Source: Gammaproteobacteria bacterium (GTDB taxonomy: Bacteria; Pseudomonadota; Gammaproteobacteria; UBA4575). From it: a stretch of DNA of 64,000 nt. The stretch lies in NCBI GenBank assembly GCA_965221955.1, contig CBDCTA010000002.1:32001-96000 (forward strand). Reading direction: 5' to 3'. Shown here piece after piece: positions 22,018 through 39,280 of this stretch. The translations under genes and the position numbers were made by a program. How positions within the stretch are numbered: position 1 is the first letter of the stretch; each line of letters begins with the position of its first letter. A model generated the notes under the pieces. The model was not told where the DNA came from. It saw nothing but the letters and a program-made list of their open reading frames with translations, and searched no databases.

Positions 22018-22030
22018 TTTTCAAGCTAAG

Positions 22031-22784: not shown

Positions 22785-23007
22785 AATGTTGTAGTGTAAT
22801 ACTAAACAAAATGTAGCAAATTGATAAATAAAGTATCAGCTACATTCTTTATGAAATCATTATAGTAATGAGAGTTAGTTTGGAAGTGGCTGTAAAGATG
22901 TAAGTTATTAAGTACAAAATCTTTTACAACCCGCTAAATGTGAGCATAAGAAATTGCAGCTATTTTTTTATATTACACAAACTAAACATTAAAATTGAGG
23001 AGTGAAA

Positions 23008-24402
23008 ATGAAAATTTCTCATAAAATTTTAGTTGTTGAACATGATGTAGAGTTTGGTGAATCCGTGAAAATTTTGCTCGATGGTGAGCAAATGTCTGTA
23101 ACACATGTCTCAAAAGTTCATGATGCAATGAAAATGCTCTTGTCAGAGCATTATGATTTAATTTTGAGTGATCTAAAGTTAAGCGGTCCAACTGGCCTGG
23201 ACTTATTAAGAAAGGTTCGTGCTGAAAAGCTAGAAATACCGACGATCATTATGACTAGCTACACTTCTATTAAATGTGCTGCACAAGCATTGCGCCTTGG
23301 TGCTGCAGATTACATCCTAAAACCATTTACTGATTCATATTTATTACATGCTGTCGAGAGATGCTTAAAAGAAAAGTATATTCAAAAAGAAAATACTCTA
23401 TTACGACGAAATTTAAGCGCTGCACTACATACCAAGCAAGAAATAATTGGTGACAGTCATTCCATGCATGAGCTTAAGAAATTAATTAAAAGGGTTGGGC
23501 CAAGTGATGCAACTGTTCTTATACAAGGTGAAAGTGGTACTGGTAAAGAATTGGTGGCCTTAGGAATTCATAAAGAAAGTCCACGAAGAGAAGGTAGATT
23601 TGTTCCTGTTAATTGTGGCGCAATACCAATAGAGTTGATGGAATCTGAATTTTTTGGGCATGTAAAAGGTGCATACACGGGTGCTGTTTCAAGTAAAGTA
23701 GGGCTGATTCAAGAGGCGCATGGGGGAACTCTATTTTTAGATGAGATTTCAGAATTAGCACCAATGCTACAAGTGAAATTGTTGCGATTTATACAGGAAA
23801 AAATGATTAAGCCTGTAGGTGAAAGCAAATCTCATGAGGTAGATGTTCGTATTATTGCTGCATGTAATCGAGATTTACAAAATGAAGTTAATGAAGGGCG
23901 AATGCGAGAAGATTTATTTTATCGATTAAATGTCATTCAAATTTCTGTACCTCCGTTGCGTCAACGACTAGAGGATATAGAAATTCTCACACAATATTTT
24001 ATCAATCATTACAATAATAAATTAGGCAGGAAAATTGATAGTGTTGAAGATGAAGCGATTGACTTATTAAAAGAGTATCAATGGCCTGGAAATATTAGAG
24101 AATTAGAAAATTCAATTGAGCGCGCTGTAATATTAGCTAAAAGTGACGAACTGACTGCAGAAGATTTCAAACATATAAAATCAAATGGAGTAAATCAAAA
24201 ACCAATAAATGGTCAAGAGCATAAGTCACATGAGCCGATGTCAATAGAAGATTATACGCGTCGAGTAATTGAAAATTACCAAGATCGCTATAGTGAAATT
24301 GAACTTGCAAATTTATTAGGCATAGGGCGAAAAGCGTTATGGATGCGCCGAAATAGATGGGGACTGTTTAGGGATAAACCAAAAACAGCTGCAGAATTAT
24401 AA
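23008..24402 (+). CDS. Sigma54-dependent response regulator (REC-AAA+-HTH), CbrB-like C-terminus
   Basis: ILSD phosphoacceptor, GESGTGKE, GAYTGA, LFLDEI, WPGNIRELEN; C-terminal SIEDY...ELANLLGIGRKALW.RR; RBS GAGGAG. Confidence 0.92.
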   Translation: MKISHKILVVEHDVEFGESVKILLDGEQMSVTHVSKVHDAMKMLLSEHYDLILSDLKLSGPTGLDLLRKVRAEKLEIPTIIMTSYTSIKCAAQALRLGAADYILKPFTDSYLLHAVERCLKEKYIQKENTLLRRNLSAALHTKQEIIGDSHSMHELKKLIKRVGPSDATVLIQGESGTGKELVALGIHKESPRREGRFVPVNCGAIPIELMESEFFGHVKGAYTGAVSSKVGLIQEAHGGTLFLDEISELAPMLQVKLLRFIQEKMIKPVGESKSHEVDVRIIAACNRDLQNEVNEGRMREDLFYRLNVIQISVPPLRQRLEDIEILTQYFINHYNNKLGRKIDSVEDEAIDLLKEYQWPGNIRELENSIERAVILAKSDELTAEDFKHIKSNGVNQKPINGQEHKSHEPMSIEDYTRRVIENYQDRYSEIELANLLGIGRKALWMRRNRWGLFRDKPKTAAEL

Positions 24403-24578
24403 GATATACATTAAAAATATTTTATAAGCGACATTTAATTTCTGTATATTTAAATTTATTTCAGATTAAATTTCCATTTTAGCTATTACTCATAACTTAT
24501 ATTCTTAAATAATAATTTACTAATTAGCTCGAAATAGTAGATAAATAAATTCGTTTAAAACAAAAATGTGTGCTTCTT

Positions 24579-24616
24579 TGTTTCTATCTAGATATGTTAA
24601 GTGTCTTTTAGAAACA
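24579..24616. promoter_or_regulatory. Putative activator binding sites (UAS)
   Basis: TGTTTC at 24579 and GAAACA at 24611. Confidence 0.55.
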
Positions 24617-24669
24617 CTCTATTCTATTTAATTCTCTTAACCCTGTGAGTTTGCGCGGTTTGCATAAAC

Positions 24670-24685
24670 AGGAACGAAAATTGCT
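24670..24685 (+). promoter_or_regulatory. sigma54 promoter of the ABC binding protein gene
   Basis: AGGAACGAAAATTGCT, GG-N10-GC. Confidence 0.7.
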
Positions 24686-24903
24686 TTATAATTTAAGTAA
24701 GGTATTCTCATGTGCCGCAAGTTTTTAATTATTTGCTTTTGATGGGTTTGTGTACTCCTTCAACATGAATTAAATTACTAATTTGCGGTTACATGAGATT
24801 ACTGAAAATTCAGAAATTAAAATAACTAAATATAAATCCTTGCTTTTTAATATTCATAGACATGCTATGCAATACACAAAAGTATTTATGTAGGAGGAAA
24901 AAA

Positions 24904-26332
24904 ATGAAGTTCTTTAACTTTACAAAGCTAACAGTGTTAACAATATCATTTGTTGCAATGTTAATTAGTCCTTTAGCAATTTTTGCTGAAGGTAAAATGT
25001 ATATTCCTATACCAAGTTATCGTGTAGGACCATACGCTGCAGGAGGAACAGGTTATTACGGCGGTATTCTTGATTACTATAATCTAATGAATATTCGTGA
25101 TGGCGGTGTAGGCGGTGTCAAACTCACTTGGTCAGAGTGTGAAACAGAATATTCTGTAGAACGAGGTGTTGAATGCTATAAGCGAATGAAAGACCGTGAT
25201 GGTGGGGCATTGTTTTTTGATCCTTTAAGTGTAGGTATAGCAATTGCCTTAAATGAAGTGGTTCGTAAAGATCAAATCCCTATGATCACAGTGAATCATG
25301 GCATGAGTGAAACTATTGATGGTGAGGTTTTCCCATATGTATTTCCATTAGGTATGGGTGTTCCTGATGAATACAATGCAACAGTTCGTTTTATGGCACA
25401 TTTAGAATCTGGTGAAAACCCTAATACGGTTGACATCAAGAAGGCTTTAGATGGCAAGAAAATTGTTACATTATTTCATGGGTCTCCTTATGGAAAAGAA
25501 GCACTTGATTACATGGACGCGATGGGTGAAGAGTATGGATTTGAGCATCATAGAATTGAAATTCCACACCCAGGTAACGAACAGCAAGCGCAATGGCTTC
25601 AGATAAGAAAAATTAAACCAGACTTTGTATTCTTACGTGGATGGGGAGTAATGAACCCTGTAGCAATGCAATCTGCAGCGCGTATTGGTTATCCAGTGTA
25701 ATCGTTTGATTGGAAATATTTGGAGTAATTCAGATGAAGATGTGGTGCCTGCGGGTAAAGCTGCACATGGCTATCAAGCTATTACCACACACCCTGCTGG
25801 TATTTTCGCGGATGTTCAAAATGAAATTATTGAAACCGTCTATGGTGGCGGAAAAGGTGATTTACAAGATAAAAGCCGTCTAGGAAGTGTGTATCATAAT
25901 CTTGGTATCACTGCTGGCATCATGCACGTAGAAGCGATTCGAAATGCTCAAAAACGTTGGGGTAATGTGCCTTTAACCGCACAGCAAGTGCGATGGGGCT
26001 TTGAAAACATTCACTTTGACGAAGCAAGAATTAAAGAGTTAGGTGCTGAAGGTTTGTTAGCGCCAATGTTAGTTACTTGTAAAGATCATGTAGGTGGACA
26101 TAATTCTAAATTCCAAAAATACAATGCTGAGAAACCCGTCAAGTGGGAAATTGTTACACCTTGGATTAAAAGCCAAGCACCAATTGATGGGCTCTATGCG
26201 TCAGCTGAGAAATATCGTGCAGATAACGAAATAGAGAAGCGTAACTGTGACGATGAAAATGATCGTAATAACTGGACGCTATCAGGCGATCAGCCAGCTG
26301 TTCCTGCAGGTGTAAGCACTTGGGGCAGTTAA
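24904..26332 (+). CDS. ABC transporter periplasmic binding protein, branched-chain/LivJ-like family; frameshift near 25697
   Basis: Signal peptide, YRVGPYA, ECETEY..ERGVECY, PGNEQQAQWLQIR, GWGVMN, continuing in another frame as GNIWSNSDED; RBS AGGAGG. Confidence 0.85.
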
Positions 26333-26480
26333 AAGGTATTGTGTCTAGATAGTAAATCTATCTACTTGTACATTAGCTGCGCTTTCAAAACGTAGAACAA
26401 CGCATTAGCCACTGAGCAAAAGGCAAGCCGGGTTACAGGAAGTAACTCGTTACAAGGAAGTGCGTCCGGTTTCGTTCAAT

Positions 26481-26529
26481 GAAACACAAAAATTCGTTTC
26501 TTTTTGACCTATGTTTCTAAAATGAAACA
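26481..26529. promoter_or_regulatory. Putative activator binding sites (UAS)
   Basis: Palindrome TGTTTC-TAAAAT-GAAACA at 26512-26529, plus GAAACA at 26481 and CGTTTC at 26495. Confidence 0.6.
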
Positions 26530-26593
26530 TAATATAGTTCTGTGTAAAAACTTATAGTATATTTATAATTGTATCGATAGATCATGGGTCTTA

Positions 26594-26610
26594 TGGCATA
26601 ATAAAATGCA
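26594..26610 (+). promoter_or_regulatory. Probable sigma54 promoter of the ribBA-sfnG operon
   Basis: TGGCATAATAAAATGCA; GG-N11-GC, one base too long across an A run in an indel-rich stretch. Confidence 0.55.
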
Positions 26611-26674
26611 GAATTAGAGCACAATCGCTGCAAGTTTTTATTCAAGGCAATAACTTATATTCAGTAAGTCATCT

Positions 26675-27916
26675 ATGGGTGAAGTTCAATTTAATAGTAT
26701 TTCTGAAGCATTGATTGATTTGCGTCGAGGTAAGTTAGTAATCGTAGTCGATGATGAATGTCGTGAGAATGAAGGTGATTTCATAGGAGCGGCAGATAAA
26801 TGTACCCCTGAAATGATCAATTTCATGGCTACTCATGGTAGAGGTTTAATTTGTACTGCAATTACAAGAGAACGAGCAGATGAGCTTAATTTAGATTTAA
26901 TGGTATGCTGAGTCAGACAATGATTCATTGCACATGAAACACCGTTTTCACAACTTCTGTAGATTTTAAACATGGAACAACAACAGGAATTTCTGCAGCA
27001 GATCGATCGAAAACAGTTAAAGCTTTGTCAGACCACAAATATTAGATGGGGAAAGATTTTGCACGACCTGGGCATATCTTTCCATTACGTGCGGCTAGAA
27101 GGAGGGGTATTTAGAAGAAATGGTCATACTGAAGCAACGATAGATTTAATGGATTTAGCAGGTTTAAAAAAGCCGGTGTTCTGTGTGAAATTATGAATGA
27201 AGATGGTTCACCATGGCGCGTCTTGCCTGAACTTACAAGACATTGGCAAAGATGCATGGATTAAAGATTAATAAGTATAAAAGACTTAATCCAATATAAA
27301 TTACGTTATGAGTCTAGAGTTCAGCGTGTAGTTACGGTTGATTTGCCAACAAATGGGGCGATTTTGAGTTAGTCGCGTTTAGTGATATTTATACTGATAA
27401 AGAACATTTAGCAATCGTCAAAGGGTCATGGGGAAAAGATGATGAAGTCATTGTGCGAATACATTCTGAATGTTTGACGGGTGATGTATTTGGTTCGTCA
27501 CGTTGTGATTGTGGGGATCAACTTCAATCATCAATTAAAAATTCATCAATGAGCATGGCGCTGGAGTCGTTTTATATATGCGAGAAGAGGGAAGAGGCAT
27601 TGGATTGCTTAGTAAACTTAAAGCCTACTCATTACAAGAATGTGGCTTAGATACTGTTCAAGCAAATAGAGCATTAGGATTTGATGCAGATCATCGAGAC
27701 TACACTGTAGCAGCACATATACTAAGTGCATTGCATGTTGAACGAGTTCAGTTGTTAACAAATAATATGAATAAATGTTGTTGGATGGAGAAACATGGAA
27801 TTGAGTGTACAAAAAGAATTCCGATCTTGTCACCATGTGAAGATCACGAATACCGAAAAAAATATTTAAATACTAAAAAAGAGAAAATGGGTCATGTAAT
27901 CCCCATGAAGAAATGA
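26675..27916 (+). pseudogene. ribBA: Bifunctional DHBP synthase/GTP cyclohydrolase II with multiple frameshifts (sequencing indels or pseudogene)
   Basis: Fragments [64 protein letters not shown] in changing frames. Confidence 0.88.
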
Positions 27917-27980
27917 AAGAGATAAATTATTAATTGTTTTAACCTGGATTATTTAATGGAGAAATTTCGTAGGAGGAAAA

Positions 27981-28169
27981 ATGTCTGAGAATGAAGAATT
28001 TGGTTTAAAGGACTTAACTGCAGAAATGATAAAAATCGTAAGGAATGAGACAAGAGCTGGAACAATAGACTGTAGGGATGCGTTGATTGAAAGTAAGGGA
28101 GATACGGATAAAGCGATAGAGATTTTGAAAGAGAAGGGAATTGGAACACCAAAAAAAGTTTGGACGTAA
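27981..28169 (+). CDS. Stand-alone EF-Ts N-terminal (UBA-like) domain microprotein
   Basis: LTAEMIKIVRNETRAGTIDCRDALIESKGDTDKAIEILKEKG aligns with the EF-Ts N-terminus; RBS AGGAGG. Confidence 0.75.
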   Translation: MSENEEFGLKDLTAEMIKIVRNETRAGTIDCRDALIESKGDTDKAIEILKEKGIGTPKKVWT

Positions 28170-28287
28170 GAATTATGCCTTTTGCAACGGTTGTATTATT
28201 GAATATATTTAACTTGATAAATAATTGTTCAAAGAATGCAGAGAAAATTGATACATAGTCGACTATATAAGAGAACAGAGGTGAAAA

Positions 28288-29460
28288 ATGGCAACATATC
28301 CAAAACTATTACCAAATTCTGAGAATCCACTTAAGCCTTCGGCTTGGCTGGAATCAGATCAAGTGGAGTTTGCGTATTGGGTGCCCAACATATCTGGTGG
28401 TTTGGTAATTACAACACTACCTATGGATACTGATTGGACTCCTGAGGCAAACATTAAATATGCGCAAGATGCAGAAGAAGTAGGATTTGCAACTGCTCTA
28501 TGCCAAACACGTTGGTTTGCAAGTTATGGCGCAGACCATCAACACGAAGCATTCACAATTGCGAATGTACTTCTACAACACACTAAAAAAATTGAAATGA
28601 TTACTGCATGTCATCCCGGTTTATGGCATCCGGCAATTGTGGCTAAGTTGCAAGCATCGCTTGATGTTTGTTGTCAAGGCCGTACTTCAATTAATATCGT
28701 GAGTGGCTGGTTCAAAGGCGAATTTACGGGTTATGGCTTACCATGGCTTGAGCATACTGAACGATATCGTAGATCCGAAGAATTCATTCGTATTATGAAA
28801 GGTATGTGGACTGAAGAAGAGTACACCATGTACGGGGATTTCTATCAAATAAATGGTGCTCCAATGCTACCAAAGCCGTTACACAGAATTACAGTATTTC
28901 AGGGTGGAAACTCTAAAGATGCGCGTCGAATGGCAGGTAGAGTGACAGATTGCTTGTTTATGAATGGAAATACAAACAAAGGCTTTAAAGAAATTATGGA
29001 TGATTCTCGTGCCTCTGCAGTCGAGAGTGGTCGTGATCCTAACGAACTTAAGTTTGGTGCAAATGGTTTTTGTATTGTTCGCGATACGATGGAAGAAGCA
29101 ACCGATACTTTGCGTGAAATCATCGTTAATGCTGATGTAGAAGCTGTGAAGGGTTTTGGTGAAGCTGTGAAAAACGCAGGCCGATCATCTGCTGAAGGTG
29201 AAGGCATGTGGGCAAATTCATCATTTGAAGATTTAGTTCAATATAATGATGGCTTTAAGACTGGCCTTATTGGCACACCAGAAACAGTTGCTGATCGTAT
29301 TATTGAGCTAAAACAGTTAGGTATGAAAGTAATCCTTTGTGGGTTCTTGCACTACAATACAGACTTAAGAGCATTTGGCGAGAAGGTTATTCCTTTAGTG
29401 CGTGAGAAAGAAGAAGACCTTCGCAAAGGTAAGTCTTACGGCAAAAAGAAGTCTGCTTAA
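28288..29460 (+). CDS. sfnG: Luciferase-like FMNH2-dependent monooxygenase, SfnG (dimethylsulfone monooxygenase) family
   Basis: FAYWVPNISGGLV, NIVSGWFKGEF, EHTERYRRSEEFIR, FQGGNS, FEDLVQYNDGFKTGLIGTP, GFLH. Confidence 0.85.
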   Translation: MATYPKLLPNSENPLKPSAWLESDQVEFAYWVPNISGGLVITTLPMDTDWTPEANIKYAQDAEEVGFATALCQTRWFASYGADHQHEAFTIANVLLQHTKKIEMITACHPGLWHPAIVAKLQASLDVCCQGRTSINIVSGWFKGEFTGYGLPWLEHTERYRRSEEFIRIMKGMWTEEEYTMYGDFYQINGAPMLPKPLHRITVFQGGNSKDARRMAGRVTDCLFMNGNTNKGFKEIMDDSRASAVESGRDPNELKFGANGFCIVRDTMEEATDTLREIIVNADVEAVKGFGEAVKNAGRSSAEGEGMWANSSFEDLVQYNDGFKTGLIGTPETVADRIIELKQLGMKVILCGFLHYNTDLRAFGEKVIPLVREKEEDLRKGKSYGKKKSA

Positions 29461-29521
29461 TCAAGTAAAGTACTAAGCTTAGATTATCTAATGCTATGTA
29501 TTTTCCTCTGCCAGAAACGCT

Positions 29522-29561
29522 GAGAAAAGGAATTAAATAGAAATTATAAATTCCTTTTCTC
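29522..29561 (+). terminator. 13-bp stem-loop between sfnG and the FMN reductase (partial terminator or mRNA stabiliser)
   Basis: GAGAAAAGGAATT-N14-AATTCCTTTTCTC. Confidence 0.65.
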
Positions 29562-29596
29562 TTGTCGTTTCTAGCATTATTTAGGAGGTATATGTA

Positions 29597-30196
29597 ATGA
29601 AATTACTAGGAATATCAGGAGGCATGAGTCAAAAAACTCTTGTTGCTTTAGAAAAGGCACTTGATTTTGCATATCAATATGACAATGCTATAGATATTGA
29701 GGTAATAAGTATTGGCGAGCTTGATATCCAATTTTGTGATGGTAGAGATCCGGCAAAATATGAAGGCGATACAAAGCTTATTATTGACAAAATTATTGAT
29801 GCAGATGCATTGATATTTGGAACACCGATGTATCGAGGGACTTATACTGGACTGTTAAAAAACGTTTTTGACTTAATCCCGAATGACGCACTTATGGGTA
29901 AACCAGTAGGCTTGATTGCAACAGGTGGTAGTGATCATCATTATTTAGCATTAGAGCACGAACTCAAACCTTTGTTAGGTTTTTTTCTCGCACACGCTAT
30001 TCCTGGGAATGTGTATGCAAATAATGAGCATTATTCTAATAGGGATTTAGTAGATCAAGATGTTCTTGACCGTTTAAGAGAGCTTGCAGAGTCTATTGTA
30101 AATTTTGTAAGAATCTTGCCGGAAGATAAAGCAAGCCTCGTAGGTGCGAGAGCACCCACTATAAGAAGGAAGCCTATACTAAAAAAAGCTAGTTAA
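29597..30196 (+). CDS. NAD(P)H-dependent FMN reductase (SsuE/MsuE/SfnF family)
   Basis: GTPMYRGTYTGLLKNVFDL, ATGGSDHH, LEHELKPLLGFF. Confidence 0.9.
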   Translation: MKLLGISGGMSQKTLVALEKALDFAYQYDNAIDIEVISIGELDIQFCDGRDPAKYEGDTKLIIDKIIDADALIFGTPMYRGTYTGLLKNVFDLIPNDALMGKPVGLIATGGSDHHYLALEHELKPLLGFFLAHAIPGNVYANNEHYSNRDLVDQDVLDRLRELAESIVNFVRILPEDKASLVGARAPTIRRKPILKKAS

Positions 30197-30233
30197 AAAT
30201 AAATAATAAATACTCATATTGTCGGAGGAACGT

Positions 30234-30539
30234 ATGTCTCAAAATAATCCTAAATATAAAATTTTGCAGCAAGTCGTAGATGAAGAAACGTATAGGACAG
30301 ATACATCTACTTTATTGGCTTATGATGAAGGCAATAGTAAATTTCTTTTTAGGGCATTAAATTCTAATTATTTTTTACAAAGTGACGATAAAGAAGAAAT
30401 ACAAGTATTAGAAATGGGTGAGGCTGAAGAGATGTGGAATGAAATGCCAAATAAGCATGTAACGAATATTACTGCTGCATTTCCAAAATATCATGGTGGT
30501 GTAGGAATGGATACCTATACTAATTTGTATGACGACTAA
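30234..30539 (+). CDS. Hypothetical protein
   Basis: GGAGG RBS and ATG at 30234; 101 aa; no motif recognised. Confidence 0.75.
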   Translation: MSQNNPKYKILQQVVDEETYRTDTSTLLAYDEGNSKFLFRALNSNYFLQSDDKEEIQVLEMGEAEEMWNEMPNKHVTNITAAFPKYHGGVGMDTYTNLYDD

Positions 30540-30588
30540 TCTTGTAGCACATTAAGATAATTAGCTTATAAGCTTTAAGGGGTTAGTA

Positions 30589-31164
30589 ATATCTACATTA
30601 GTAATACCTCCGTTAAATTATTGCACTAATTGTGGAGCAAAACTTACACGTTTTGTTCCAAATGGCGACTTGTTAGAGCGTAGTGTTTGTCATAAATGCG
30701 AACTAGTTCATTACGAAAATCCAAAAATACTTGTAGGAAGCATTATTGATTGCGATAGCAAAGTTTTATTATGCAAACGGGCAACTGAGCCGCGTCTGGG
30801 TTATTGGACATTGCCATCTGGCTATATGGAAAATAATGAAACTGTTCATGCTGCTGCGCTTCGTGAAACCTATGAAGAAACTAAGGTATCAGTGGAGGAG
30901 TTGAGTTTATACTCAGTATTCTCATGCCCTAACATAAATCAAGTTTACTTTATATTTCGTGGTCAGGCAGATAATGACTGCGCCTCTACAACAGAGGAAA
31001 GTTCAGAGACAAGATATTTTCAAAAACAAGATATTCCCTGGCATGATTTATCTTATTCTATTATGAAACAAGCCTTAGAGTGGTATTTTCACGATAAAGA
31101 AATTGGTAGCTACCACTTTAGAATGCATGATGTGTATGGTTGCGATCCGGATTTACAATCATAA
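30589..31164 (+). CDS. Zinc-ribbon NUDIX hydrolase (start codon uncertain)
   Basis: Frame open upstream of the track start gives NYCTNCG...CHKC..HYENPK; Nudix box GYMENNETVHAAALRETYEE. Confidence 0.85.
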   Translation: MSTLVIPPLNYCTNCGAKLTRFVPNGDLLERSVCHKCELVHYENPKILVGSIIDCDSKVLLCKRATEPRLGYWTLPSGYMENNETVHAAALRETYEETKVSVEELSLYSVFSCPNINQVYFIFRGQADNDCASTTEESSETRYFQKQDIPWHDLSYSIMKQALEWYFHDKEIGSYHFRMHDVYGCDPDLQS

Positions 31165-31225
31165 ATAAAACTCAATTAGTGTGTTGTTCCCACACTACTA
31201 AAATCCTAACCTTTTGCTCTTCATA

Positions 31226-31265
31226 TGTTTCAAAGTGCACATATCCAGATAGCGTTAATGAAACA
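31226..31265. promoter_or_regulatory. Putative activator binding sites (UAS)
   Basis: TGTTTCAAAGTGCACA at 31226 and GAAACA at 31260. Confidence 0.55.
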
Positions 31266-31345
31266 TGTTAATTTTTAAATTAATAATGAATTCACTATTG
31301 ATACTTAAACTACTAGTTATTAAGGCAATATTTTTTCATAAATTG

Positions 31346-31361
31346 TGGCCCATTAGTTGCA
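31346..31361 (+). promoter_or_regulatory. sigma54 promoter of the osmC-osmC-acs-lpdA operon
   Basis: TGGCCCATTAGTTGCA, GG-N10-GC. Confidence 0.8.
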
Positions 31362-31402
31362 GGTATTTTAATTAAAGCTGTTAAAAATTAGGAAATGTAA
31401 GG

Positions 31403-31972
31403 TTGAGCCAAGAGAATATTAGAGATAATACAAGTTTAAAAGACTCCGTATTAAATCTTATTAGTAAAACTTCTGCTGACGAAAATGTTGGGAAATTTTC
31501 CTATAGTGTTTATACACATAATGAAGGAGGGGTATTGTGTAAAGCAAGGGTGCGAAATGAACATAGTTTAGTTGTTGATGAGAAACCAATCTTAGGCGGT
31601 TGTGATTTGGGTATGAGCCCCATTGAGCTTTTATTAGTTTCATTAGGTACATCACAAGAAATTGTATTCTCGATGATGGCGTCTAAATTAAATATTGAAT
31701 TAGAAGAATGTGAAGTGCAGTTAACAGCGGAATTAGATGTAAGAGGAATGCTTGGTGTTGCAGATAGGAACAATGAGGCAGGAACTGGGCTTAGCAATAT
31801 TAATTATACTACTAAATTGAAAAGTAACGCTTCAAGTAAGCAGCTTGAAGTGCTAATCCAAGCAGTTAAAAAACAATGTCCAGTATTAAATATATTGACA
31901 GAGAAAGTAAGTGTAAAAGGCACAACAATAATAAATAACTATGAATTGAATCATAGAGATAAAGTTGCCTAA
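31403..31972 (+). CDS. OsmC/Ohr family protein, first catalytic Cys replaced by Ser
   Basis: VDEKPILGGCDLGMSPIELLLVSLGTSQ ... QCPV. Confidence 0.85.
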   Translation: MSQENIRDNTSLKDSVLNLISKTSADENVGKFSYSVYTHNEGGVLCKARVRNEHSLVVDEKPILGGCDLGMSPIELLLVSLGTSQEIVFSMMASKLNIELEECEVQLTAELDVRGMLGVADRNNEAGTGLSNINYTTKLKSNASSKQLEVLIQAVKKQCPVLNILTEKVSVKGTTIINNYELNHRDKVA

Positions 31973-32062
31973 TTACTCAAATATTTGCTGTTGTAGATAT
32001 TTGAGGTCATTGATTCTGTTTTTCCATTTTAAATTTATACTTGAAAAAAATAAAAATAACTT

Positions 32063-32668
32063 ATGAGTAGTGAGAATGTTTCGAGTTTAGAAACAGTAAA
32101 AGTTGCTGTAGGTAAAATTATATCTAGTGCTAATGAAGATTCAGAGTATGGAAATTTTAAGTACTACGTAAATACTAAGTGGGAAGGTGGTACCCTTTGT
32201 AAAAATCAGATACGCCGAGCGCATAAACTTTTAGTAGATGAGCCTCCTGCTTTTGGGGGTGATGATTTAAGTGCTAGTCCAGTTGAACTTGTGCTAGCTG
32301 CACTTGGTTCATGCCAAATAATAATGTTTTCAGCATTAGCTGCAACTAGAAGTATTGAGCTCGAAGAGTGCGAAGTAACCTTAAAAGCACGTCTAAATGT
32401 AAGAGGTTTGCTTGGAATAAAAGAAAATAACCAGCCTGTATACCCAGGGTTTTCAAGCATAGATTACGAAACAAAGCTTAAAAGTTCTGAGCCAAAAGAT
32501 ATTCTTGCAAAACTTATTGAAGATGTCGAAAACCAATGTCCCGTGATGGATATGCTTACACGCTCAATGAGTGTGAATGGAAATGCTTTTGTTAATGAAG
32601 AGCCAATAGATATAAATACGAAAAAATCAATATTGTCTAAACTACTGCATATATTTCGTAAAAAATAA
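32063..32668 (+). CDS. OsmC/Ohr family protein with both catalytic Cys
   Basis: VDEPPAFGGDDLSASPVELVLAALGSCQ ... QCPV. Confidence 0.9.
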   Translation: MSSENVSSLETVKVAVGKIISSANEDSEYGNFKYYVNTKWEGGTLCKNQIRRAHKLLVDEPPAFGGDDLSASPVELVLAALGSCQIIMFSALAATRSIELEECEVTLKARLNVRGLLGIKENNQPVYPGFSSIDYETKLKSSEPKDILAKLIEDVENQCPVMDMLTRSMSVNGNAFVNEEPIDINTKKSILSKLLHIFRKK

Positions 32669-32681
32669 ATTCACTTTTGAT

Positions 32682-34580
32682 ATGTCCACTTTTTTTACAG
32701 AATCTAATTACAAAGCGCTATACCAATGGTCAATGGATGAGCCTGATGCATTTTGGGCTGCACAAGCGAATGAGTTTGTGCATTGGATATCGCCATGGTC
32801 GAAGGTTATGGTTCAAGATGAACATAGGGTACATGCAGAATGGTTTGTCGGGGGTAAAATAAACGTTGCATATAATTGTGTCGATCGGCATTTAGAAGCC
32901 AATGGCGATAAGACTGCCATTATTTGGGAAGGTGATGATCCTAATGAGGTCAAAACATTAACGTATAAAGAATTGCATAAAGAAGTTTGTAAGTTTTCAA
33001 ATGTGCTGAAAGCTAATGGGGTTAAAAAAGGCGATCGTGTATGTGTTTATATGCCATTGATAATAGAAACGGCAGTTGCCATGCTTGCTTGTGCCAGAAT
33101 AGGTGCGATTCATTCTGTTGTTTTTGGGGGTTTCTCAGCAAAGTCACTCAGTGACAGAATTCAAGATGCAGAATGTAAGCTTCTAGTCACTGCAAACGAA
33201 GGATTGCGTGGCGGCAAAATTATTCCAATAAAGGACATTGCTGACCAAGCTCTTGAAACTTGTCCTAACGTGAAGACAGTAATCGTAGTAAAACGCACGT
33301 TGAATTCAACAAATATGATTGAGGGTCGAGATGTCTGGTATGAAGATGAAGTAAGCAAGGTATCTGATGAATGCCCTGTTGAAGAAATGAATTCAAGTGA
33401 CCCATTGTTTATTTTATACACATCTGGTTCTACTGGTAAGCCAAAAGGAATTTTACATGGTTCTGCAGGCTATCTGCTGCATGTCTGTTTGACGCATAAA
33501 TATATTTTTGATCATAAAGAAAACGATATATATTGGTGTACTGCAGACCTTGGTTGGGTTACAGGGCATTCGTATGTGTTATATGGTCCATTATCAAATG
33601 GCGCGACTACCTTAATGTTTGAAGGAGTGCCTACCTACCCGGATGCAAGTCGTTATTGGCAGATCGTAGATAAATATAACGTTAATATTTTTTACACTGC
33701 GCCAACTATATTGCGGACATTAACTGCATTTGGGGAAGAACCTATAAAAAATTATTCATTAGATAGTTTGCGATTACTCGGAACTGTAGGTGAACCCATC
33801 GATGTTGATACTTGGGATTGGTATTTTGAAAATATTGGGCATAAAAAATGTCCAATTATCGATACTTGGTGGCAAACCGAAACAGGAGGTGTGCTAATTT
33901 CTCAATTGCCAGGAGAAATCTCTGAGCAATGTGGCACAAATGCAAAACCCTTTCTAGGTATTGTGCCAGCACTTGTTGACGACAATGAAAATTTGATGGA
34001 AGAGAATTCTGGAAATCTAGTAATTAAGCAACCATGGCCTGGTCAAATGCTTACAATATATGGCGATCAAAAAAGATTTGAAGAAACCTATTTTACAGAT
34101 AGCAGTAAAGGAGGCTATTACTACCCCAGTGATCGGGCTTTAATTCAAGATGATGGTTCGGTTCGTGTTACTGGGCGTACAGATGACACCTTGAATGTAT
34201 CTGGACACCTTTTTGGTGCAACAGAAATTGAAAGCGCATTAATACTGCATGACTTGGTAGCAGAAGCAGCAGTAGTAGGGTATCCACATCCAGTAAAAGG
34301 AGAAGGGATCTATTCATTCGTTGCATTGAATAAAGGTGTGCATTCAAGTGATCAAATGAATGATGAACTAAACCAAATTGTACGAGAACAAATCAGTGCT
34401 GTCGCAAAACCAGATGTAATCCATTGTGTAACTGAGTTGCCTAAAACCCGTAGCGGAAAAATTATGCGACGTATTCTTAGAAAAATTGCAATTAATGATT
34501 TTTCTGATTTGGGAGATACGTCAACCTTAGTTAATCCAGCCATTGTCAATGAGTTAATTGAAAGCAGGAAAAACGTCTAG
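32682..34580 (+). CDS. acs: Acetyl-CoA synthetase
   Basis: YTSGSTGKPKG, YWCTADLGWVTGHSY, DTWWQTETGG, LPKTRSGKIMRRILRK. Confidence 0.95.
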   Translation: MSTFFTESNYKALYQWSMDEPDAFWAAQANEFVHWISPWSKVMVQDEHRVHAEWFVGGKINVAYNCVDRHLEANGDKTAIIWEGDDPNEVKTLTYKELHKEVCKFSNVLKANGVKKGDRVCVYMPLIIETAVAMLACARIGAIHSVVFGGFSAKSLSDRIQDAECKLLVTANEGLRGGKIIPIKDIADQALETCPNVKTVIVVKRTLNSTNMIEGRDVWYEDEVSKVSDECPVEEMNSSDPLFILYTSGSTGKPKGILHGSAGYLLHVCLTHKYIFDHKENDIYWCTADLGWVTGHSYVLYGPLSNGATTLMFEGVPTYPDASRYWQIVDKYNVNIFYTAPTILRTLTAFGEEPIKNYSLDSLRLLGTVGEPIDVDTWDWYFENIGHKKCPIIDTWWQTETGGVLISQLPGEISEQCGTNAKPFLGIVPALVDDNENLMEENSGNLVIKQPWPGQMLTIYGDQKRFEETYFTDSSKGGYYYPSDRALIQDDGSVRVTGRTDDTLNVSGHLFGATEIESALILHDLVAEAAVVGYPHPVKGEGIYSFVALNKGVHSSDQMNDELNQIVREQISAVAKPDVIHCVTELPKTRSGKIMRRILRKIAINDFSDLGDTSTLVNPAIVNELIESRKNV

Positions 34581-34588
34581 TTCCAGAT

Positions 34589-36283
34589 ATGGGAAATAGA
34601 ATAGAAATTAAAGTTCCTGATTTATCAGGAGTAAGCGATGTTCCTGTTACAGAGTTATTTGTATCTCCAGATCAAGCAGTAGAAGCAGGCGATAATCTCA
34701 TCGCCATCGAAACAGAAAAAACGATAATTGATATTCCTTCACCTGTGAAAGGGATAGTAAAAGAAATATCAGTTTCCGTTGATGAGCGTGTAAAAGAAGA
34801 TCAAGTATTGCTGGTAATTGAATCAGATGAAGAATTGTCTGATTCAGCGGAAAAACCAAAATCAAATAGCATTAATCAAGATCTACATACACAAGTATTA
34901 GTAATCGGGTCAGGGCCAGGCGGTTATTCAGCTGCATTTAGAGCTGCTGACCTTGGAAAAAAAGTTGTTTTAGTCGAGCGTAATCAAACACTGGGAGGGG
35001 TGTGCTTGAATGTAGGTTGTATTCCATCTAAATCTTTACTTCACGCTGCGAAAGTTATAAGTGAGTCAAAGGAAATGTCAAAGTTTGGGGTGAAATTTCC
35101 TTTGCCTGAAATAGACACTCAGATATTACGATCGTGGAAAAACAGTGTTATTAAAAAGTTAACAGGTGGCTTAAACAGTCTTGCAAAAAATCGCAATGTA
35201 AAAATTGTAAATGGACAAGCAAAATTCTTATCTTCAAAGCAAATCTCTTTGCAAACTGGAGATAACAAGGTCTATAAAATTGATTTTGAACAGGCCATCA
35301 TTGCTGTCGGCTCAGAACCAGTAAAATTCTCACAGTTTCCACATGAAGATAGTCGAATGTTAACTTCAACTGAAGCTTTGGAAGTAAACGAGATTCCGGA
35401 AAGATTATTGATTGTTGGTGGAGGGATCATTGGTTTAGAGATGGCTACGGTTTATCACGAGCTTGGATCAAAAGTAACGGTTGTTGAATTTGCCAACTCC
35501 TTGATACCGGGAGCAGATCCTGATTTAGTTAAACCGTTGTATCAACGAATTTCGAAAATGTATGAAGATATATATTTAAATACAAAGGTCAGTAGCGTTG
35601 AATCGACTTTAAATGGAATGTATGTTCGCTATGAAGGCCAGGCAAAAAAGAAGAAAGACGTATTCGATCAAGTGCTTGTGGCAGTTGGAAGAACGCCAAA
35701 TGGAAATATGATTGATGCTGAAAAAGCAGGTATAAACGTTAATGAACAAGGTTTCATCACTGTTAACGAAAAATTACAAACAAATGTTGACAATATATAC
35801 GCAATAGGAGATGTGGTAGGTCAGCCTATGCTTGCACATAAAGCGGCTCATGAAGGTAAAGTTGCGGCAGAAGTGATATCTGGCTTAACTGGATATTTTG
35901 ACAATACACTAATACCATCTGTTGCATATACTGATCCTGAAATTGCATGGGTTGGCATAACAGAGACTGAAGCAAAGCAACAAAATTTAGACTTCGAGAC
36001 TGCAATATTTCCTTGGGCAGCAAGCGGTAGATCCTTAAGTATTGAGAGAAATGAAGGCATGACAAAAACTATTTATAACTTGAAATCAAAAAAAATAATA
36101 GGTGCAGGAATAGTAGGAACAAATGCTGGTGAATTGATTTCTGAAGCAGCTTTAGCTATAAAAATGGGTGCGACTTCAAGCGATATAAGCGAGTTGATTC
36201 ATCCGCATCCAACTCTTAGCGAAACGGTAGGTTTTTCTGCTGAGGTGTTTGATAAAACAATTGTAGAAATGTATTTAAAATAA
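34589..36283 (+). CDS. lpdA: Dihydrolipoamide dehydrogenase with N-terminal lipoyl domain
   Basis: Lipoyl motif IETEKT..DIPSP; GGVCLNVGCIPSK; LAHKA; IHPHPTLSE. Confidence 0.95.
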   Translation: MGNRIEIKVPDLSGVSDVPVTELFVSPDQAVEAGDNLIAIETEKTIIDIPSPVKGIVKEISVSVDERVKEDQVLLVIESDEELSDSAEKPKSNSINQDLHTQVLVIGSGPGGYSAAFRAADLGKKVVLVERNQTLGGVCLNVGCIPSKSLLHAAKVISESKEMSKFGVKFPLPEIDTQILRSWKNSVIKKLTGGLNSLAKNRNVKIVNGQAKFLSSKQISLQTGDNKVYKIDFEQAIIAVGSEPVKFSQFPHEDSRMLTSTEALEVNEIPERLLIVGGGIIGLEMATVYHELGSKVTVVEFANSLIPGADPDLVKPLYQRISKMYEDIYLNTKVSSVESTLNGMYVRYEGQAKKKKDVFDQVLVAVGRTPNGNMIDAEKAGINVNEQGFITVNEKLQTNVDNIYAIGDVVGQPMLAHKAAHEGKVAAEVISGLTGYFDNTLIPSVAYTDPEIAWVGITETEAKQQNLDFETAIFPWAASGRSLSIERNEGMTKTIYNLKSKKIIGAGIVGTNAGELISEAALAIKMGATSSDISELIHPHPTLSETVGFSAEVFDKTIVEMYLK

Positions 36284-36285
36284 AT

Positions 36286-36576
36286 ATGAATGATGCTCTT
36301 ACAAATGAGCTTGAAAGAAGAGTGGATGAGGTCTTATTTTATTTTTGGGACCCATTTGGATTAAAAGACGAACCTTATGCAAGGACTGAATATCGATCCT
36401 ATGTACAGGAGGTTTATCGTTATTTGCAAAATAATAAGTCAGCAGAAGAAATGGCTAGATTGCTTATCGACATAGTAGAAAATCGAATGGGAATTTCTAT
36501 TAATCATGACCTTGCGGAAAATGTAGGCAAGTTGTTACTTAGACATAAAAAAGCAGTTGAATCAGGAATATCCTAA
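36286..36576 (+). CDS. Hypothetical protein (WDP..EY motif, DUF1871-like)
   Basis: FWDPFGL....RTEYRSY; 2 nt after the lpdA stop. Confidence 0.6.
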   Translation: MNDALTNELERRVDEVLFYFWDPFGLKDEPYARTEYRSYVQEVYRYLQNNKSAEEMARLLIDIVENRMGISINHDLAENVGKLLLRHKKAVESGIS

Positions 36577-36591
36577 CTAGAAAATTCAAAA

Positions 36592-37170
36592 TTAAATAGG
36601 ATTAGCTACTACAGCATACCGTAAAGATCCTCCTGTTAAAGGGGTATCAAATGGATAGCATGTGATTAATGTTAATTGTTCCATGCCAGAGTCATGCATA
36701 ATCTCTACCTGATTTTGGTCAACAATAAATGTGTAATTAACTCTATATCGGACTTTTTTGCTCGGTAGTTCAACAATAATTTCATCATTACGTATTAAAT
36801 CTTTTAACACAGAGAAATGTGTGTCGCGATGTCCAACGATAACACTGTTTCCTCCATTCCCAGGTAAAGGGCTAGCACTTACATGCCCAGGTCCAAAAGC
36901 CATCGTACGACCATTTCCACCTGCAAGTACAATATAGTGTTGTTTTAGTTTGCTAAAAGTAATTTTAGCAACCGGATAAGTATCGGCCCAGTCCCAAGGC
37001 TTAACCTGATTGTCGCCTTGTAAGGTTTTTGCCCAAGCACTATTTAATAGATACTGTGCTAACTGTGCTTTTGCATAAATATAGCTTCCTGTACCGAATT
37101 GCCAACATGCTATTAATATTATTGTAAAAAAAGTAATATTTTTTACAAAAAATAATTTATTTAAACGCAT
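36592..37170 (-). CDS. Class GN sortase of the proteobacterial dedicated sortase system
   Basis: IYAKAQLAQYL, KPWDWADT, GHRDTHF, LTLITCYPF, LRY. Confidence 0.93.
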   Translation of the reverse strand: MRLNKLFFVKNITFFTIILIACWQFGTGSYIYAKAQLAQYLLNSAWAKTLQGDNQVKPWDWADTYPVAKITFSKLKQHYIVLAGGNGRTMAFGPGHVSASPLPGNGGNSVIVGHRDTHFSVLKDLIRNDEIIVELPSKKVRYRVNYTFIVDQNQVEIMHDSGMEQLTLITCYPFDTPLTGGSLRYAVVANPI

Positions 37171-39280
37171 ACTTTCGTGTCACAAATCCTATTATCAATA
37201 ATAATACTCCTATGATTAAATTCATTTGTGCTGAAGTGGCTCCTTGAGGGATCTGCATATTCCAACCGTGGGGTTTTTTAATCGGTATTGCTTTATCTTT
37301 ACTTGTTATATGTTTTGGTTTGCTAGGAGTGACATCTACCGCAACTAAACTAGTGTGTTGAGTGACAATATGATGTTCAAGGCCTAGCGCTGTAATTTCT
37401 TGTTTAATCTTTTCAGGATCAGCACCATGGCTAATCTTTTGGCTTAAGCTTTGAATTTTGTTGCGTGCCCATAAAATATTCAGGCCATTTGCCTGGCCGC
37501 CTTTAATGAGAGGTAAAGTTGTTGACCAATCTGTATTAGCTGTTTTACCTGTGAGAGCGAGTTGACTCTGGTTTTTTGGTAGTTTGAGGCTAATGATTAA
37601 AGGTTCACCTATATATAAGTCGTGAATAGGGTTGGGCCAATAATCAACTTTACTACTATCTTTCCATGTCATCTCGATGTCACTTAATACAGGGTGATTT
37701 AATTTTTGAAACAATTGTGTCATCTTTTGCTTTACTTCATCGGTTTTTCCAATATAAGTGAAAGTACCTCGACCTAATGAAGCGGCTTCGCTCATGAAAT
37801 AACTATTTGGGGCAGAGCCAATACCAACCGTGAACAAACGACTATGATTTAATTTACGGTTTATGATTTCAAATAACTGCTGTTCATTGCCAACGCTGCC
37901 ATCGGTTAAAAATATAACCTGACGAATTCGTTCGCTTTGATTAGTTAATGATAGTGCTGCATTGAGAGCAGGCGCAATTTCAGTACCACCATTTGCATAT
38001 AATGAGTGTACGTATTTTTTTGCGCGATCAATGTTATTTTCTCTGGCGGGTAACGCTTGTTCAGAAAAAGATTTTGTATAAGAGTTAAATTGAATAATAT
38101 TGAACCAGTCTTCGCTTTTTAGTTGGTTTAGACCTAATAATAAAGCCTGCTTAGCTTGTTGTATGGACTCGCCAGACATGGATCCTGATGTATCGATAAC
38201 ATAAATCATTTCCTTTGCTAAAGTCTGTTGTTGAGTCCAATCTATTTCAGGTGGCATTAACATAAGTAATGCATAGCGATCATTGTCTTTGTCTTGAGTA
38301 AAGAGAGCTGCTTGAGGCTCATGGGTTACCTGTGGACGCCATACCAATTCAAAATCGCGGTTTGCTGGAGTAATGTAATTGGCCAGCTCGATTAGATAAT
38401 GACCCGATTCGATCAATTGTTTGCTGATAGAGTGATAACTACTTTCCACATTAACGAGAGGAAAACCAGCATCAAGCTCAATATTAATCGAAACTGGGTT
38501 ATCGTGTCCTTGATCTACTTCTGTTATGGGTGGAGTGATAAGACTCGCATCAGGTACTGCATCGGTATTCATCGCCCACCCCGTACCTTTAAAGCCTTCA
38601 ACTTTTTGTGTGCCAGGGATGTAACGAATCCCAACGACCATTGGAAAACGTATTGAAAACTGACCTTGGTCATAGCTTAAGGTTTGTTGATATTGAATGG
38701 AAATGGACACTTTCTCATTCGGTCCTATATTGGCTACAGAATTAGTGAAAATATTTGGGCGTTGTTGTTCAACTAGGCTGGCTTTTTTACCTTCTTGTTT
38801 GGCTTGAGTATAAATTTTTTTCGCTTGTATCCTTTCTTTTATTTCCCCTTCGATCACACGCTCGCCAATGATCATTTTCATATGATCTACAGCGGCATTT
38901 TCTGGTAAAGGAAATACATAAATACCATTCACCCATTCAGATGAAGGATTGGTAAAATGCTGAGTCACGTTTACACGCGCAATAAGGCCATTGATAGTCA
39001 TATCAACGTCAGTATTGACGGTAGGTGCCATTCGATATTGGCCAGATCGGTTAGTTTCAATTAATAAACTTCCACTCTCTGTTTCATTTATGGTGACCAG
39101 AACTTCGTTATTTGCCTGTGCGATTGGTTTAACGATGAATATCGTTAGGCTAAGAAAGAATAAAAAAGAGGTGACCCGAAAGCCACCTAATAGAGGAGGA
39201 GCATACTTTGAAAATGAATTACGTTCGACGTTTTGATTTAGTAAAGATAATTTTTGAATACCTGGGGATTGATAGTTCAT
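37157..39280 (-). CDS. Marine proteobacterial sortase target protein (VIT plus vWA domains)
   Basis: YVFPLPENAAV (VIT), DTSGSM MIDAS, FLTDG; C-terminal IPQGAT, TM helix and basic tail. Confidence 0.92.
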   Translation of the reverse strand: MNYQSPGIQKLSLLNQNVERNSFSKYAPPLLGGFRVTSFLFFLSLTIFIVKPIAQANNEVLVTINETESGSLLIETNRSGQYRMAPTVNTDVDMTINGLIARVNVTQHFTNPSSEWVNGIYVFPLPENAAVDHMKMIIGERVIEGEIKERIQAKKIYTQAKQEGKKASLVEQQRPNIFTNSVANIGPNEKVSISIQYQQTLSYDQGQFSIRFPMVVGIRYIPGTQKVEGFKGTGWAMNTDAVPDASLITPPITEVDQGHDNPVSINIELDAGFPLVNVESSYHSISKQLIESGHYLIELANYITPANRDFELVWRPQVTHEPQAALFTQDKDNDRYALLMLMPPEIDWTQQQTLAKEMIYVIDTSGSMSGESIQQAKQALLLGLNQLKSEDWFNIIQFNSYTKSFSEQALPARENNIDRAKKYVHSLYANGGTEIAPALNAALSLTNQSERIRQVIFLTDGSVGNEQQLFEIINRKLNHSRLFTVGIGSAPNSYFMSEAASLGRGTFTYIGKTDEVKQKMTQLFQKLNHPVLSDIEMTWKDSSKVDYWPNPIHDLYIGEPLIISLKLPKNQSQLALTGKTANTDWSTTLPLIKGGQANGLNILWARNKIQSLSQKISHGADPEKIKQEITALGLEHHIVTQHTSLVAVDVTPSKPKHITSKDKAIPIKKPHGWNMQIPQGATSAQMNLIIGVLLLIIGFVTRKYAFK

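Follow-up and report, generated by a model that had tools for sequence, protein, structure and literature searches.

Gene content of the OsmC-LpdA unit

We analysed a window of 64,000 nt from a Gammaproteobacteria bacterium of the UBA4575 lineage (assembly GCA_965221955.1, contig CBDCTA010000002.1, positions 32,001-96,000); coordinates are those of the window unless another contig is named. Our subject is a unit on its forward strand (31346-36576), in which a sigma54-type promoter element is followed by two genes of the OsmC family (OsmC1 and OsmC2), an acetate-CoA ligase paralog (Acs), a dihydrolipoamide dehydrogenase (E3) that carries its own lipoyl domain (lipoyl-LpdA) and an open reading frame (ORF) of 96 aa (orf96; Table 1). 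The intergenic gaps inside the unit are 90, 13, 8 and 2 nt, and a 238-nt gap separates the NUDIX gene from OsmC1; it is solely from gap lengths that we deduce co-transcription from OsmC1 to orf96. A first-pass annotation of this DNA had already joined the OsmC genes and lipoyl-LpdA into one unit. The genes are indeed present, but the Acs gene between OsmC2 and lpdA had been left out.

Table 1. Features of the window and related loci elsewhere in the genome (bit scores are given against the cut-off of the respective family)
Feature	Position	Strand	Remarks
Sigma54 enhancer-binding response regulator	23002-24402	+	Response_reg, Sigma54_activat and AAA_lid_14 domains
Periplasmic binding protein gene, frameshift-split	24862-26332	+	frameshift near 25685-25701
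ribBA gene, at least 4 pieces	26675-27916	+	in-frame stop and frame changes
62-aa ORF	27981-28169	+	directly 5' of sfnG
SfnG	28288-29460	+	TIGR04021 551 bits vs 383 (above equivalog cut-off)
MsuE-like FMN reductase	29597-30196	+	
orf106	30219-30539	+	no Pfam or NCBIfam family
NUDIX hydrolase	30670-31164	+	best PDB match is the uncharacterised NUDIX hydrolase 3cng
Sigma54-type -24/-12 element TGGCCCATTAGTTGC	31346-31360	+	pattern search, one mismatch
OsmC1, 189 aa, TTG start	31403-31972	+	PF02566 62.9 bits vs 27.5
OsmC2, 201 aa	32063-32668	+	PF02566 66.6 bits vs 27.5; presumed active peroxidase
Acetate-CoA ligase paralog (Acs), 632 aa	32682-34580	+	TIGR02188 937 bits vs 725
Lipoyl-LpdA	34589-36283	+	TIGR01350 496.5 bits vs 408.8; Biotin_lipoyl (PF00364) 52.5 vs 22.1
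96-aa ORF (orf96), last gene of the unit	36286-36576	+	no known family
Sortase gene and VIT/VWA-domain protein gene, convergent to the unit	36592-39280	-	also adjoin the unit in L017
Second module: PAS histidine kinase, LuxR-type response regulator, FadL-type channel, long OsmC (176 aa), lipoyl-LpdA	G000:C18:188581-194233 (L013 6582-12233)	-	
DsrA/DsrB and NtaA/DmoA-family monooxygenase	C29:303033-305438 and C29:473592-475061		

OsmC1 and OsmC2 represent a long form of OsmC, about 180-200 aa in length, with an N-terminal helix and three conserved cysteines. In OsmC2, these are Cys46, Cys84 and Cys159, and Arg51 is kept as well. Cys84 and Cys159 are invariant or nearly so in 13 family members and fall on both cysteines of E. 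coli OsmC (hhalign, probability 88.5%). Cys46 is nearly invariant, and both this residue and the N-terminal helix are absent from classical OsmC. Arg51, Glu60 and Glu75 are conserved in long OsmC, and the arginine of E. coli OsmC sits in an unaligned insert of the hhalign alignment. When the AlphaFold2 (AF2) model of OsmC2 (pLDDT 76.9) was compared with the PDB by Foldseek, the top matches were all OsmC/Ohr structures (1lql, 1ukk, 3cje, 6mjn, 2opl and 1qwi, each with probability 1.00), with TM-scores of 0.4-0.6, as expected for the monomer model of a swapped dimer. No curated NCBIfam cut-off was reached by either protein (OsmC1, for example, gives 56.1 bits against OsmC_like_Se, below the cut-off of 95), and both were therefore filed as members of a separate long subfamily, which comprises 121 clusters at 50% identity (E up to 1e-30).

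Both proteins were correctly recognised as OsmC in the first-pass annotation, which overlooked, however, that the first catalytic cysteine of OsmC1 (the position of Cys84) is replaced by serine (LGTSQE). All eight OsmC1 orthologs examined read LGTCQE, with the cysteine in place, and contigs of two sequencing runs match the letters of the window over the serine codon. OsmC1 also possesses an extra cysteine (in GGCDLG), and at alignment columns invariant in six orthologs it carries nine private changes, compared with two in OsmC2. Because of the Cys-to-Ser change and the nine private changes, OsmC1 is probably inactive as a stand-alone peroxidase in the window genome. The idea that OsmC1 is generally a conserved cysteine-less partner was rejected, as all eight orthologs retain the cysteine. 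Long-OsmC proteins with two units, 279-429 aa in length (P0094-P0111), also occur in the representative library; all 12 that were fetched contain two units, and in two of them (P0101 and P0104) the first cysteine is missing from one unit. An OsmC pair with one degenerate partner is therefore not unique, and by analogy with the two-unit proteins it may be suggested, but only suggested, that OsmC1 and OsmC2 pair with each other. Three other two-unit proteins (P0106, P0108 and P0111) have serine instead of the second cysteine in both units, and several of the two-unit proteins bear eukaryotic-looking N-terminal extensions.

The statement that LpdA has its own lipoyl domain, with the lysine kept in ETEKT, was borne out. 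The domain occupies approximately 34589-34830 and the E3 part begins at about 34889; the translation shows 'IAIETEKTIIDI' with the lysine, and Lys44 of this motif is invariant, together with Glu41 three residues before it, across 13 aligned lipoyl domains including that of the genome's own SucB. Lys44, at the tip of the hairpin, is the predicted lipoylation site. The translation further contains CLNVGC, HPHPTLSE and GGGIIGLE...VTVVE, which we take to be the redox-active CxxxxC, the C-terminal His-Glu pair and the NAD-type dinucleotide fold, respectively. Genes for E1, E2 or glycine-cleavage proteins, also reported as missing from the neighbourhood, were not found in the stretch from 13 to 41 kb of the window.

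The genome (2.69 Mb, 29 contigs, 96.6% complete) contains five loci above the lipoamide_DH cut-off. One of them is the housekeeping E3 of a sucA-sucB-lpdA cluster (472 aa, without a lipoyl domain), so that the lpdA of the window is not the only one in the genome; had it been the only one, this would have refuted the proposal by the standard set in the first-pass annotation itself. Another is a second lipoyl-LpdA on contig C18 (563 aa, 45% identical to that of the window), which belongs to a second module with a long OsmC (Table 1); the gene set of this module recurs in a distant genome (G118), where the lipoyl carrier is encoded on its own, as GcvH. Two loci score identically at 424.4 bits (C10:9926-11281 and C29:124750-126105), which reflects either duplication or assembly redundancy. 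The C10 copy (L004) encodes a protein of 709 aa in which a VTT membrane domain is fused to a pyridine-nucleotide-disulfide oxidoreductase, and it is followed by a radical SAM/DUF3641 gene.

As for the Acs gene, it starts 13 nt after OsmC2 and ends 8 nt before lpdA. A second acs elsewhere on the contig scores higher (1054 vs 937 bits); the operon Acs shows 58% identity to this copy and 53% to E. coli Acs. The residues V310, T311, V386, W414 and K609 (E. coli numbering), which we take to belong to the acetate pocket, are kept in the operon Acs, and the substitutions R526L and N335T are found in all seven operon-type copies. A remodelled pocket was considered and rejected, the pocket residues being kept; the operon Acs looks like a working ligase of the acetate type.

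The element TGGCCCATTAGTTGC lies 43 nt before the start of OsmC1. It departs from the searched sigma54 pattern at a single position; the whole window contains, on both strands, seven sites with no more than one mismatch. A TGGC..N..TTGC element precedes the first OsmC gene in eight of ten loci: where the OsmC genes are in tandem (four loci) it is found at -57 to -60, and in four further loci at -113 to -281. The two loci that lack NUDIX and Acs showed no such element. The genome encodes rpoN, and the gene of the enhancer-binding response regulator of the window also occurs 5' of the gene island in three related loci (L019, L022 and L024) and in part in two others (L016 and L021). We regard TGGCCCATTAGTTGC as a putative sigma54 promoter of OsmC1, with the regulator at 23002-24402 as its candidate activator. 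As regards the sigma54 operon of the first-pass annotation, the element is present and conserved; co-transcription is deduced from the gaps described above. A second sigma54-type site, TGGCATATAAATTGC (22640-22654, minus strand, one mismatch), lies about 125 nt 5' of a Flavin_Reduct gene (22031-22516, minus strand) that diverges from the gene of the enhancer-binding protein. This site may belong to the same regulon as the putative OsmC1 promoter.

Recurrence of the OsmC-E3-carrier linkage

The conservation of the unit was assessed in nine related genome loci, all from metagenome-assembled genomes of marine Gammaproteobacteria with OsmC2 identities of 61-77%. SfnG, MsuE, orf106 and OsmC were present in all nine loci in the same order, NUDIX and Acs in seven each, and two OsmC copies in three. 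Lipoyl-LpdA was found in eight, and the contig of the ninth stops short of its position. Two loci (L019 and L024) lack both Acs and NUDIX, yet OsmC is followed by lipoyl-LpdA in them. The upstream order SfnG-MsuE-orf106-NUDIX is also kept in the metagenome loci L040-L045.

In an even sample of the class, matches to the long OsmC profile at E <=1e-20 were obtained in 19 of 300 genomes, the window genome included; the sole genome of the same genus in this sample gave no match. In the distant genome G118 (73% G+C), a histidine kinase, a response regulator, OsmC, FadL, an E3 without a lipoyl domain (482 aa) and GcvH are encoded in this order. In G271, a kinase and a regulator accompany OsmC, and a GcvH-like gene, a cytochrome c peroxidase and an AhpC/TSA protein are encoded nearby on the opposite strand. 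G145 combines OsmC with FadL, and G178 contains FadL, FMN reductase, an acyl-CoA-dehydrogenase-like gene, OsmC, SfnG (627 bits), an SfnB/DszC-like gene and RibBA. SfnG itself is rare, being present in three of 301 class genomes sampled, and long OsmC adjoins it in two of these three. The link between SfnG and OsmC is narrower than that to E3, comprising the window clade and one distant genome.

For a broader view, metagenomes were scanned with an alignment of 13 OsmC members as the query. Among the matches listed, 390 of 598 stretches were confirmed as relatives, and the best 80 of the 390 were kept; these collapsed to 63 representatives at 90% OsmC identity, 29 of which had at least 2.5 kb of downstream sequence. 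An E3 gene was counted as linked if it lay on the same strand within 6 kb of OsmC. By this measure, E3 was found downstream of long OsmC in 18 of the 29 representatives, and in 15 of 26 after removal of the window's own clade. For comparison, with five loci above the E3 cut-off in the 2.69 Mb of the window genome, we estimate that about 1% of randomly chosen genes would have an E3 within 6 kb. As many of the loci are kin, the counts are descriptive and not statistical. Together with the eight related genome loci and the second pair on C18, they confirm, well outside the circle of close relatives, the OsmC-lpdA synteny that the first-pass annotation had put forward as a check of its proposal.

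A lipoyl carrier was present in all 18 E3-linked loci, either fused to E3 (12 loci) or as a separate GcvH-like gene after an unfused E3 (six loci). Five of the fused carriers were detected by tblastn and seven by Pfam, and the N-terminal extensions of OsmC-linked E3s were identified as Biotin_lipoyl in all ten cases tested with Pfam. One more locus contained a GcvH-like gene only, with no E3. Other frequent neighbours among the 29 loci were response regulators (11), FadL (10) and histidine kinases (9), while SfnG was encountered in two.

A quick IQ-TREE analysis of the E3 proteins placed the window E3 in a starred clade of 26, together with 19 other fused, two GcvH-linked and four aceF-linked E3s. 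A second starred clade united six GcvH-linked E3s with one other, and one fused OsmC-linked E3 grouped among housekeeping enzymes of the suc type. OsmC-linked E3s thus occur in at least three E3 lineages, which suggests that E3s have been recruited to OsmC repeatedly.

Proposed electron path, candidate oxidants and rival readings

The motifs of the proteins, the existence of a separate housekeeping E3 and the recurrent OsmC-E3-carrier linkage in two interchangeable architectures best support the chain put forward in the first-pass annotation, in which electrons would pass from NADH through E3 and a lipoyl-lysine to OsmC. In our reading, this chain would serve as a hydroperoxide reductase and thereby protect a pathway of flavin-dependent monooxygenases. 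We consider this reading probable, with considerable room left for doubt. According to it, LpdA would use NADH to reduce its own N-terminal lipoyl-lysine arm, the dihydrolipoyl arm would reduce the Cys84-Cys159 disulfide of OsmC2, and OsmC2 would convert a hydroperoxide to the alcohol. The unit would stand under its sigma54 promoter directly behind the genes of the FMNH2-dependent SfnG/MsuE system, and its likely task would be the clearing of H2O2 or organic hydroperoxides that arise from reduced flavin and O2. OsmC1 would represent a duplicate that has diverged and, in this genome, no longer has the peroxidatic cysteine; it may be inactive or pair with OsmC2. Both the electron path and the oxidant are predicted from sequence and gene order, and the candidate oxidants named in the first-pass annotation comprise a hydroperoxide or oxidised-sulfur product of the monooxygenase and peroxide from uncoupled FMNH2 oxidation.

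Several observations weigh against this proposal. As for the OsmC proteins, peroxidase activity is a prediction for the long subfamily; OsmC2 stays below the NCBIfam cut-offs (PRK10738, 19.1 vs 138; SACOL1771, 24.6 vs 166; OsmC_like_Se, 72.1 vs 95), the best solved relative of long OsmC by sequence is the uncharacterised protein 2opl, the invariant Arg51 and the catalytic arginine of E. coli OsmC are not aligned with each other, and the peroxidatic cysteine is gone from OsmC1 in the window genome. As for the gene context, Acs is packed between OsmC2 and lpdA but has no part in the peroxidase model. No E3 was found within 6 kb in 11 of the 29 metagenome loci, the counts include many loci that are kin, and the metagenome set was limited to the 80 best of 390 matches. 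In G178, the only distant genome with SfnG-linked OsmC, neither E3 nor a lipoyl carrier was detected within about 8 kb; the nearest E3-like genes are about 20 kb from OsmC in G145 and about 54 kb in G271, and one of the three SfnG-bearing class genomes has no OsmC at its SfnG locus. Finally, the genome's own aceE-aceF genes are followed by alanine dehydrogenase with no E3 beside them, and the window E3 shares its clade in the quick tree with aceF-linked E3s. For these last two reasons, the window LpdA could also, or even mainly, serve pyruvate dehydrogenase.

If so, lipoyl-LpdA would be mainly the E3 of pyruvate dehydrogenase, forming a pair with Acs for acetyl-CoA supply, and the reduction of OsmC would be a side use of the lipoyl pool. 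Besides the missing E3 at aceE-aceF, this explanation draws on the 8-nt spacing between Acs and lpdA and on the affinities of the window E3 domain, which is 55-58% identical to, and shares the starred clade with, E3s that follow an E2 gene (G118, G178, G271 and G284), three of these four carrying a lipoyl domain. We nevertheless regard it as unlikely, given that lipoyl-E3 comes after OsmC even in loci without Acs (L019, L024 and L044), that this also holds for 15 of 26 loci outside the window clade, and that the genome has a second pair of OsmC and lipoyl-E3. A conditional sigma54 promoter would also be odd for a housekeeping E3. A sucA-sucB-lpdA cluster can, moreover, provide the E3 of both complexes, as in Pseudomonas, which likewise counts against this explanation.

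Another reading would retain the lipoyl-dependent electron path and change its end point, with long OsmC acting as a thiol reductase or detoxifier instead of a peroxidase, on a substrate such as a hydrophobic electrophile or disulfide imported by FadL. The frequent neighbours of OsmC would be in line with it: FadL adjoins OsmC in 10 of the 29 loci, as well as in the genome's own C18 locus, G118 and G178, and a PAS histidine kinase or LuxR regulator does so in 11 of 29. The third cysteine (Cys46) and the N-terminal helix are unlike classical OsmC, and no curated OsmC or Ohr cut-off is reached. Against this, both canonical cysteines are conserved and align with those of E. coli OsmC. Fatty-acid hydroperoxides, with which Ohr proteins react very fast according to excerpts of PMC5384416, are moreover hydrophobic cargo of the FadL type, so that the FadL linkage fits a peroxidase too. 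We therefore hold a non-peroxidase function to be improbable.

The sulfur metabolism of the host bears on a further possibility. The only luciferase-like monooxygenases in the genome are SfnG and an enzyme of the NtaA/DmoA family (513 bits), and SsuD/MsuD was not found in the 96.6% complete genome. NIR_SIR proteins are limited to DsrA and DsrB (equivalog scores 632 and 549). No clear CysH or CysD was found in the genome, PAPS_reduct giving one weak match of 27.7 bits. The organism thus appears to be a sulfur oxidiser that lacks assimilatory sulfate reduction. With no CysH/CysD-type protein found and DsrAB as the only sulfite reductase, sulfite would not be an obvious sulfur source. The apparent absence of SsuD/MsuD and of assimilatory sulfate and sulfite reduction bears on the fate of methanesulfinate, and for this reason we considered that the block orf106-NUDIX-OsmC-Acs-lipoyl-LpdA behind sfnG might constitute a reductive methanesulfinate route. 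In such a route, Acs would adenylate the sulfur product of SfnG, the acetate-shaped methanesulfinate, and the dihydrolipoyl arm and the thiols of OsmC would reduce it stepwise, via thiosulfinate/sulfenate, to methanethiol for assimilation, in a manner resembling sulfiredoxin.

That the unit as a whole reduces methanesulfinate seems to us very improbable, and the steps assigned to Acs, the lipoyl arm and the OsmC thiols are highly doubtful in their own right. Apart from the enzymes not found in the genome, the route could account for the presence of an extra Acs paralog with two substitutions fixed in seven of seven copies and for the linkage of OsmC with SfnG in two distant lineages. The same Acs, however, exceeds the AcsA equivalog cut-off in score and has the residues of the acetate pocket in place, and it is missing from two of the nine SfnG-OsmC-LpdA loci. 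SfnG, in turn, accompanies OsmC in only two of 29 metagenome loci, most OsmC-E3-carrier loci being without it, and we know of no precedent for such chemistry on a small-molecule sulfinate. If the route were real, it would be a small-molecule counterpart of sulfiredoxin chemistry, and dimethylsulfone could be converted directly to reduced sulfur. The unexplained Acs paralog and the absent MsuD leave room for new sulfur chemistry of some kind.

Neighbouring genes and relation to known systems

Several genes around the unit deserve mention. The genes of the periplasmic binding protein and of RibBA are broken in the window, which is due either to genome decay or to indel errors of the assembly. 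Each of them is a single open frame in the related locus L016, and in the contigs of a related strain (run X3), single letters are missing at 25698, 27534 and 27537. The 62-aa ORF in front of sfnG is present with 57-95% identity in eight of the nine related genome loci, the ninth (L017) beginning inside sfnG; by eye alone, it was likened to the N-terminal domain of elongation factor Ts. The orf106 gene comes after the FMN reductase in each of the nine related genome loci, as it does in those metagenome loci that bear SfnG. A protein-atlas search with it returned unnamed clusters only (best score 0.87) and was uninformative. The orf106 product may be an accessory protein in the SfnG system. At the other end of the unit, homologs of orf96 come after lpdA in two related genome loci (L017 and L021) and two metagenome loci (L039 and L041), and a PDB search with orf96 yielded no relative, with nothing below E 0.59. 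The convergent sortase and VIT/VWA genes form a proteobacterial sortase system unrelated to the OsmC-LpdA finding. An Rfam scan of 22000-37500 gave nothing at the gathering score.

Ohr/OsmC peroxidases are usually thought to borrow electrons from the lipoyl arms of central metabolic complexes. Work by Cussiol from 2010 is said to have described Xylella Ohr together with Lpd and lipoylated E2, and that of Nyvltova from 2016 reportedly dealt with the hydrogenosomal OsmC of Trichomonas vaginalis and its L and H proteins. Excerpts of PMC5384416 report that lipoyl groups reduce Ohr/OsmC and that E. coli OsmC is active in a lipoamide/Lpd assay, and discuss the Trichomonas OsmC with L and H proteins. 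Under sulfur starvation of P. aeruginosa, sfnG is up about 260-fold, ohr more than 40-fold and lsfA more than 45-fold, as given in parts of PMC12581299, and an OsmC-like protein of Rhodococcus is induced in organosulfur catabolism according to a portion of PMC5157978. For Hyphomicrobium denitrificans, GcvH_1 (Hden_1299) is proposed as the electron donor of OsmC (Hden_1301), in a passing mention in the available part of bioRxiv 10.64898/2026.10.01.755906. A description of OsmC linkage to dimethylsulfone or SfnG was not found in our literature search, in which co-mentions of SfnG were judged superficially.

What the present findings add is that the long OsmC subfamily, barely described so far, has, in many bacteria, an E3 and a lipoyl carrier of its own, often along with a FadL channel and a two-component sensor. 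The result is a compact module of three or four genes, which would assign a function to 'orphan' lipoyl-E3 and GcvH-like genes and, in the dimethylsulfone monooxygenase island of uncultured marine Gammaproteobacteria, may explain how cells tolerate a high flux through flavin-dependent oxygenases.

Among known systems, the lipoyl-E3s of the aceF-lpd type from pyruvate dehydrogenase clusters, of which Neisseria p64k is said to be an example, resemble the window LpdA in domain architecture and E3 clade. They come after E2 genes, however, whereas the window LpdA comes after OsmC and Acs, with no E1 or E2 gene nearby, in a genome with a separate housekeeping E3. The lipoyl-dependent Ohr/OsmC peroxidases of Xylella and E. 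coli, as far as they are covered by the excerpts of PMC5384416, share with the unit the fold, the two catalytic cysteines and the lipoyl/E3/NADH route predicted here. Those systems borrow lipoyl groups from the E2 of 2-oxoacid dehydrogenases, while in the window the carrier is fused to the unit's own E3; the OsmC here, of about 180-200 aa, is also longer and has a third cysteine in addition to its N-terminal helix. Similarly, the Trichomonas vaginalis system, as discussed in the same excerpts (PMC5384416), is a stand-alone chain of NADH, L protein (E3), lipoyl carrier, OsmC and peroxide, with no P/T or E1/E2 proteins. It is eukaryotic and organellar and has a separate H protein, in contrast to the bacterial lipoyl-E3 fusion clustered behind a putative sigma54 promoter beside sfnG.

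The gene spacing of the Hyphomicrobium pair, so far as the accessible part of its source gives it, fits the order OsmC-E3-GcvH of six metagenome representatives and of G118; unlike the window unit, the GcvH_1/OsmC pair is described there without fusion, SfnG or Acs. In the sulfur-starvation regulon of Pseudomonas, an Ohr/OsmC-family peroxidase or a peroxiredoxin likewise appears alongside FMNH2-dependent organosulfur monooxygenases, but the link is one of regulon according to the parts of PMC12581299 mentioned above, whereas here it consists of gene adjacency and includes the unit's own reductase. The principle that OsmC/Ohr proteins can depend on lipoyl groups and be served by dedicated L and H proteins has been published before. 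New are its extent as a module across the subfamily, the fused carrier as the commonest form in our sample, and its insertion in a dimethylsulfone island of uncultured marine bacteria.

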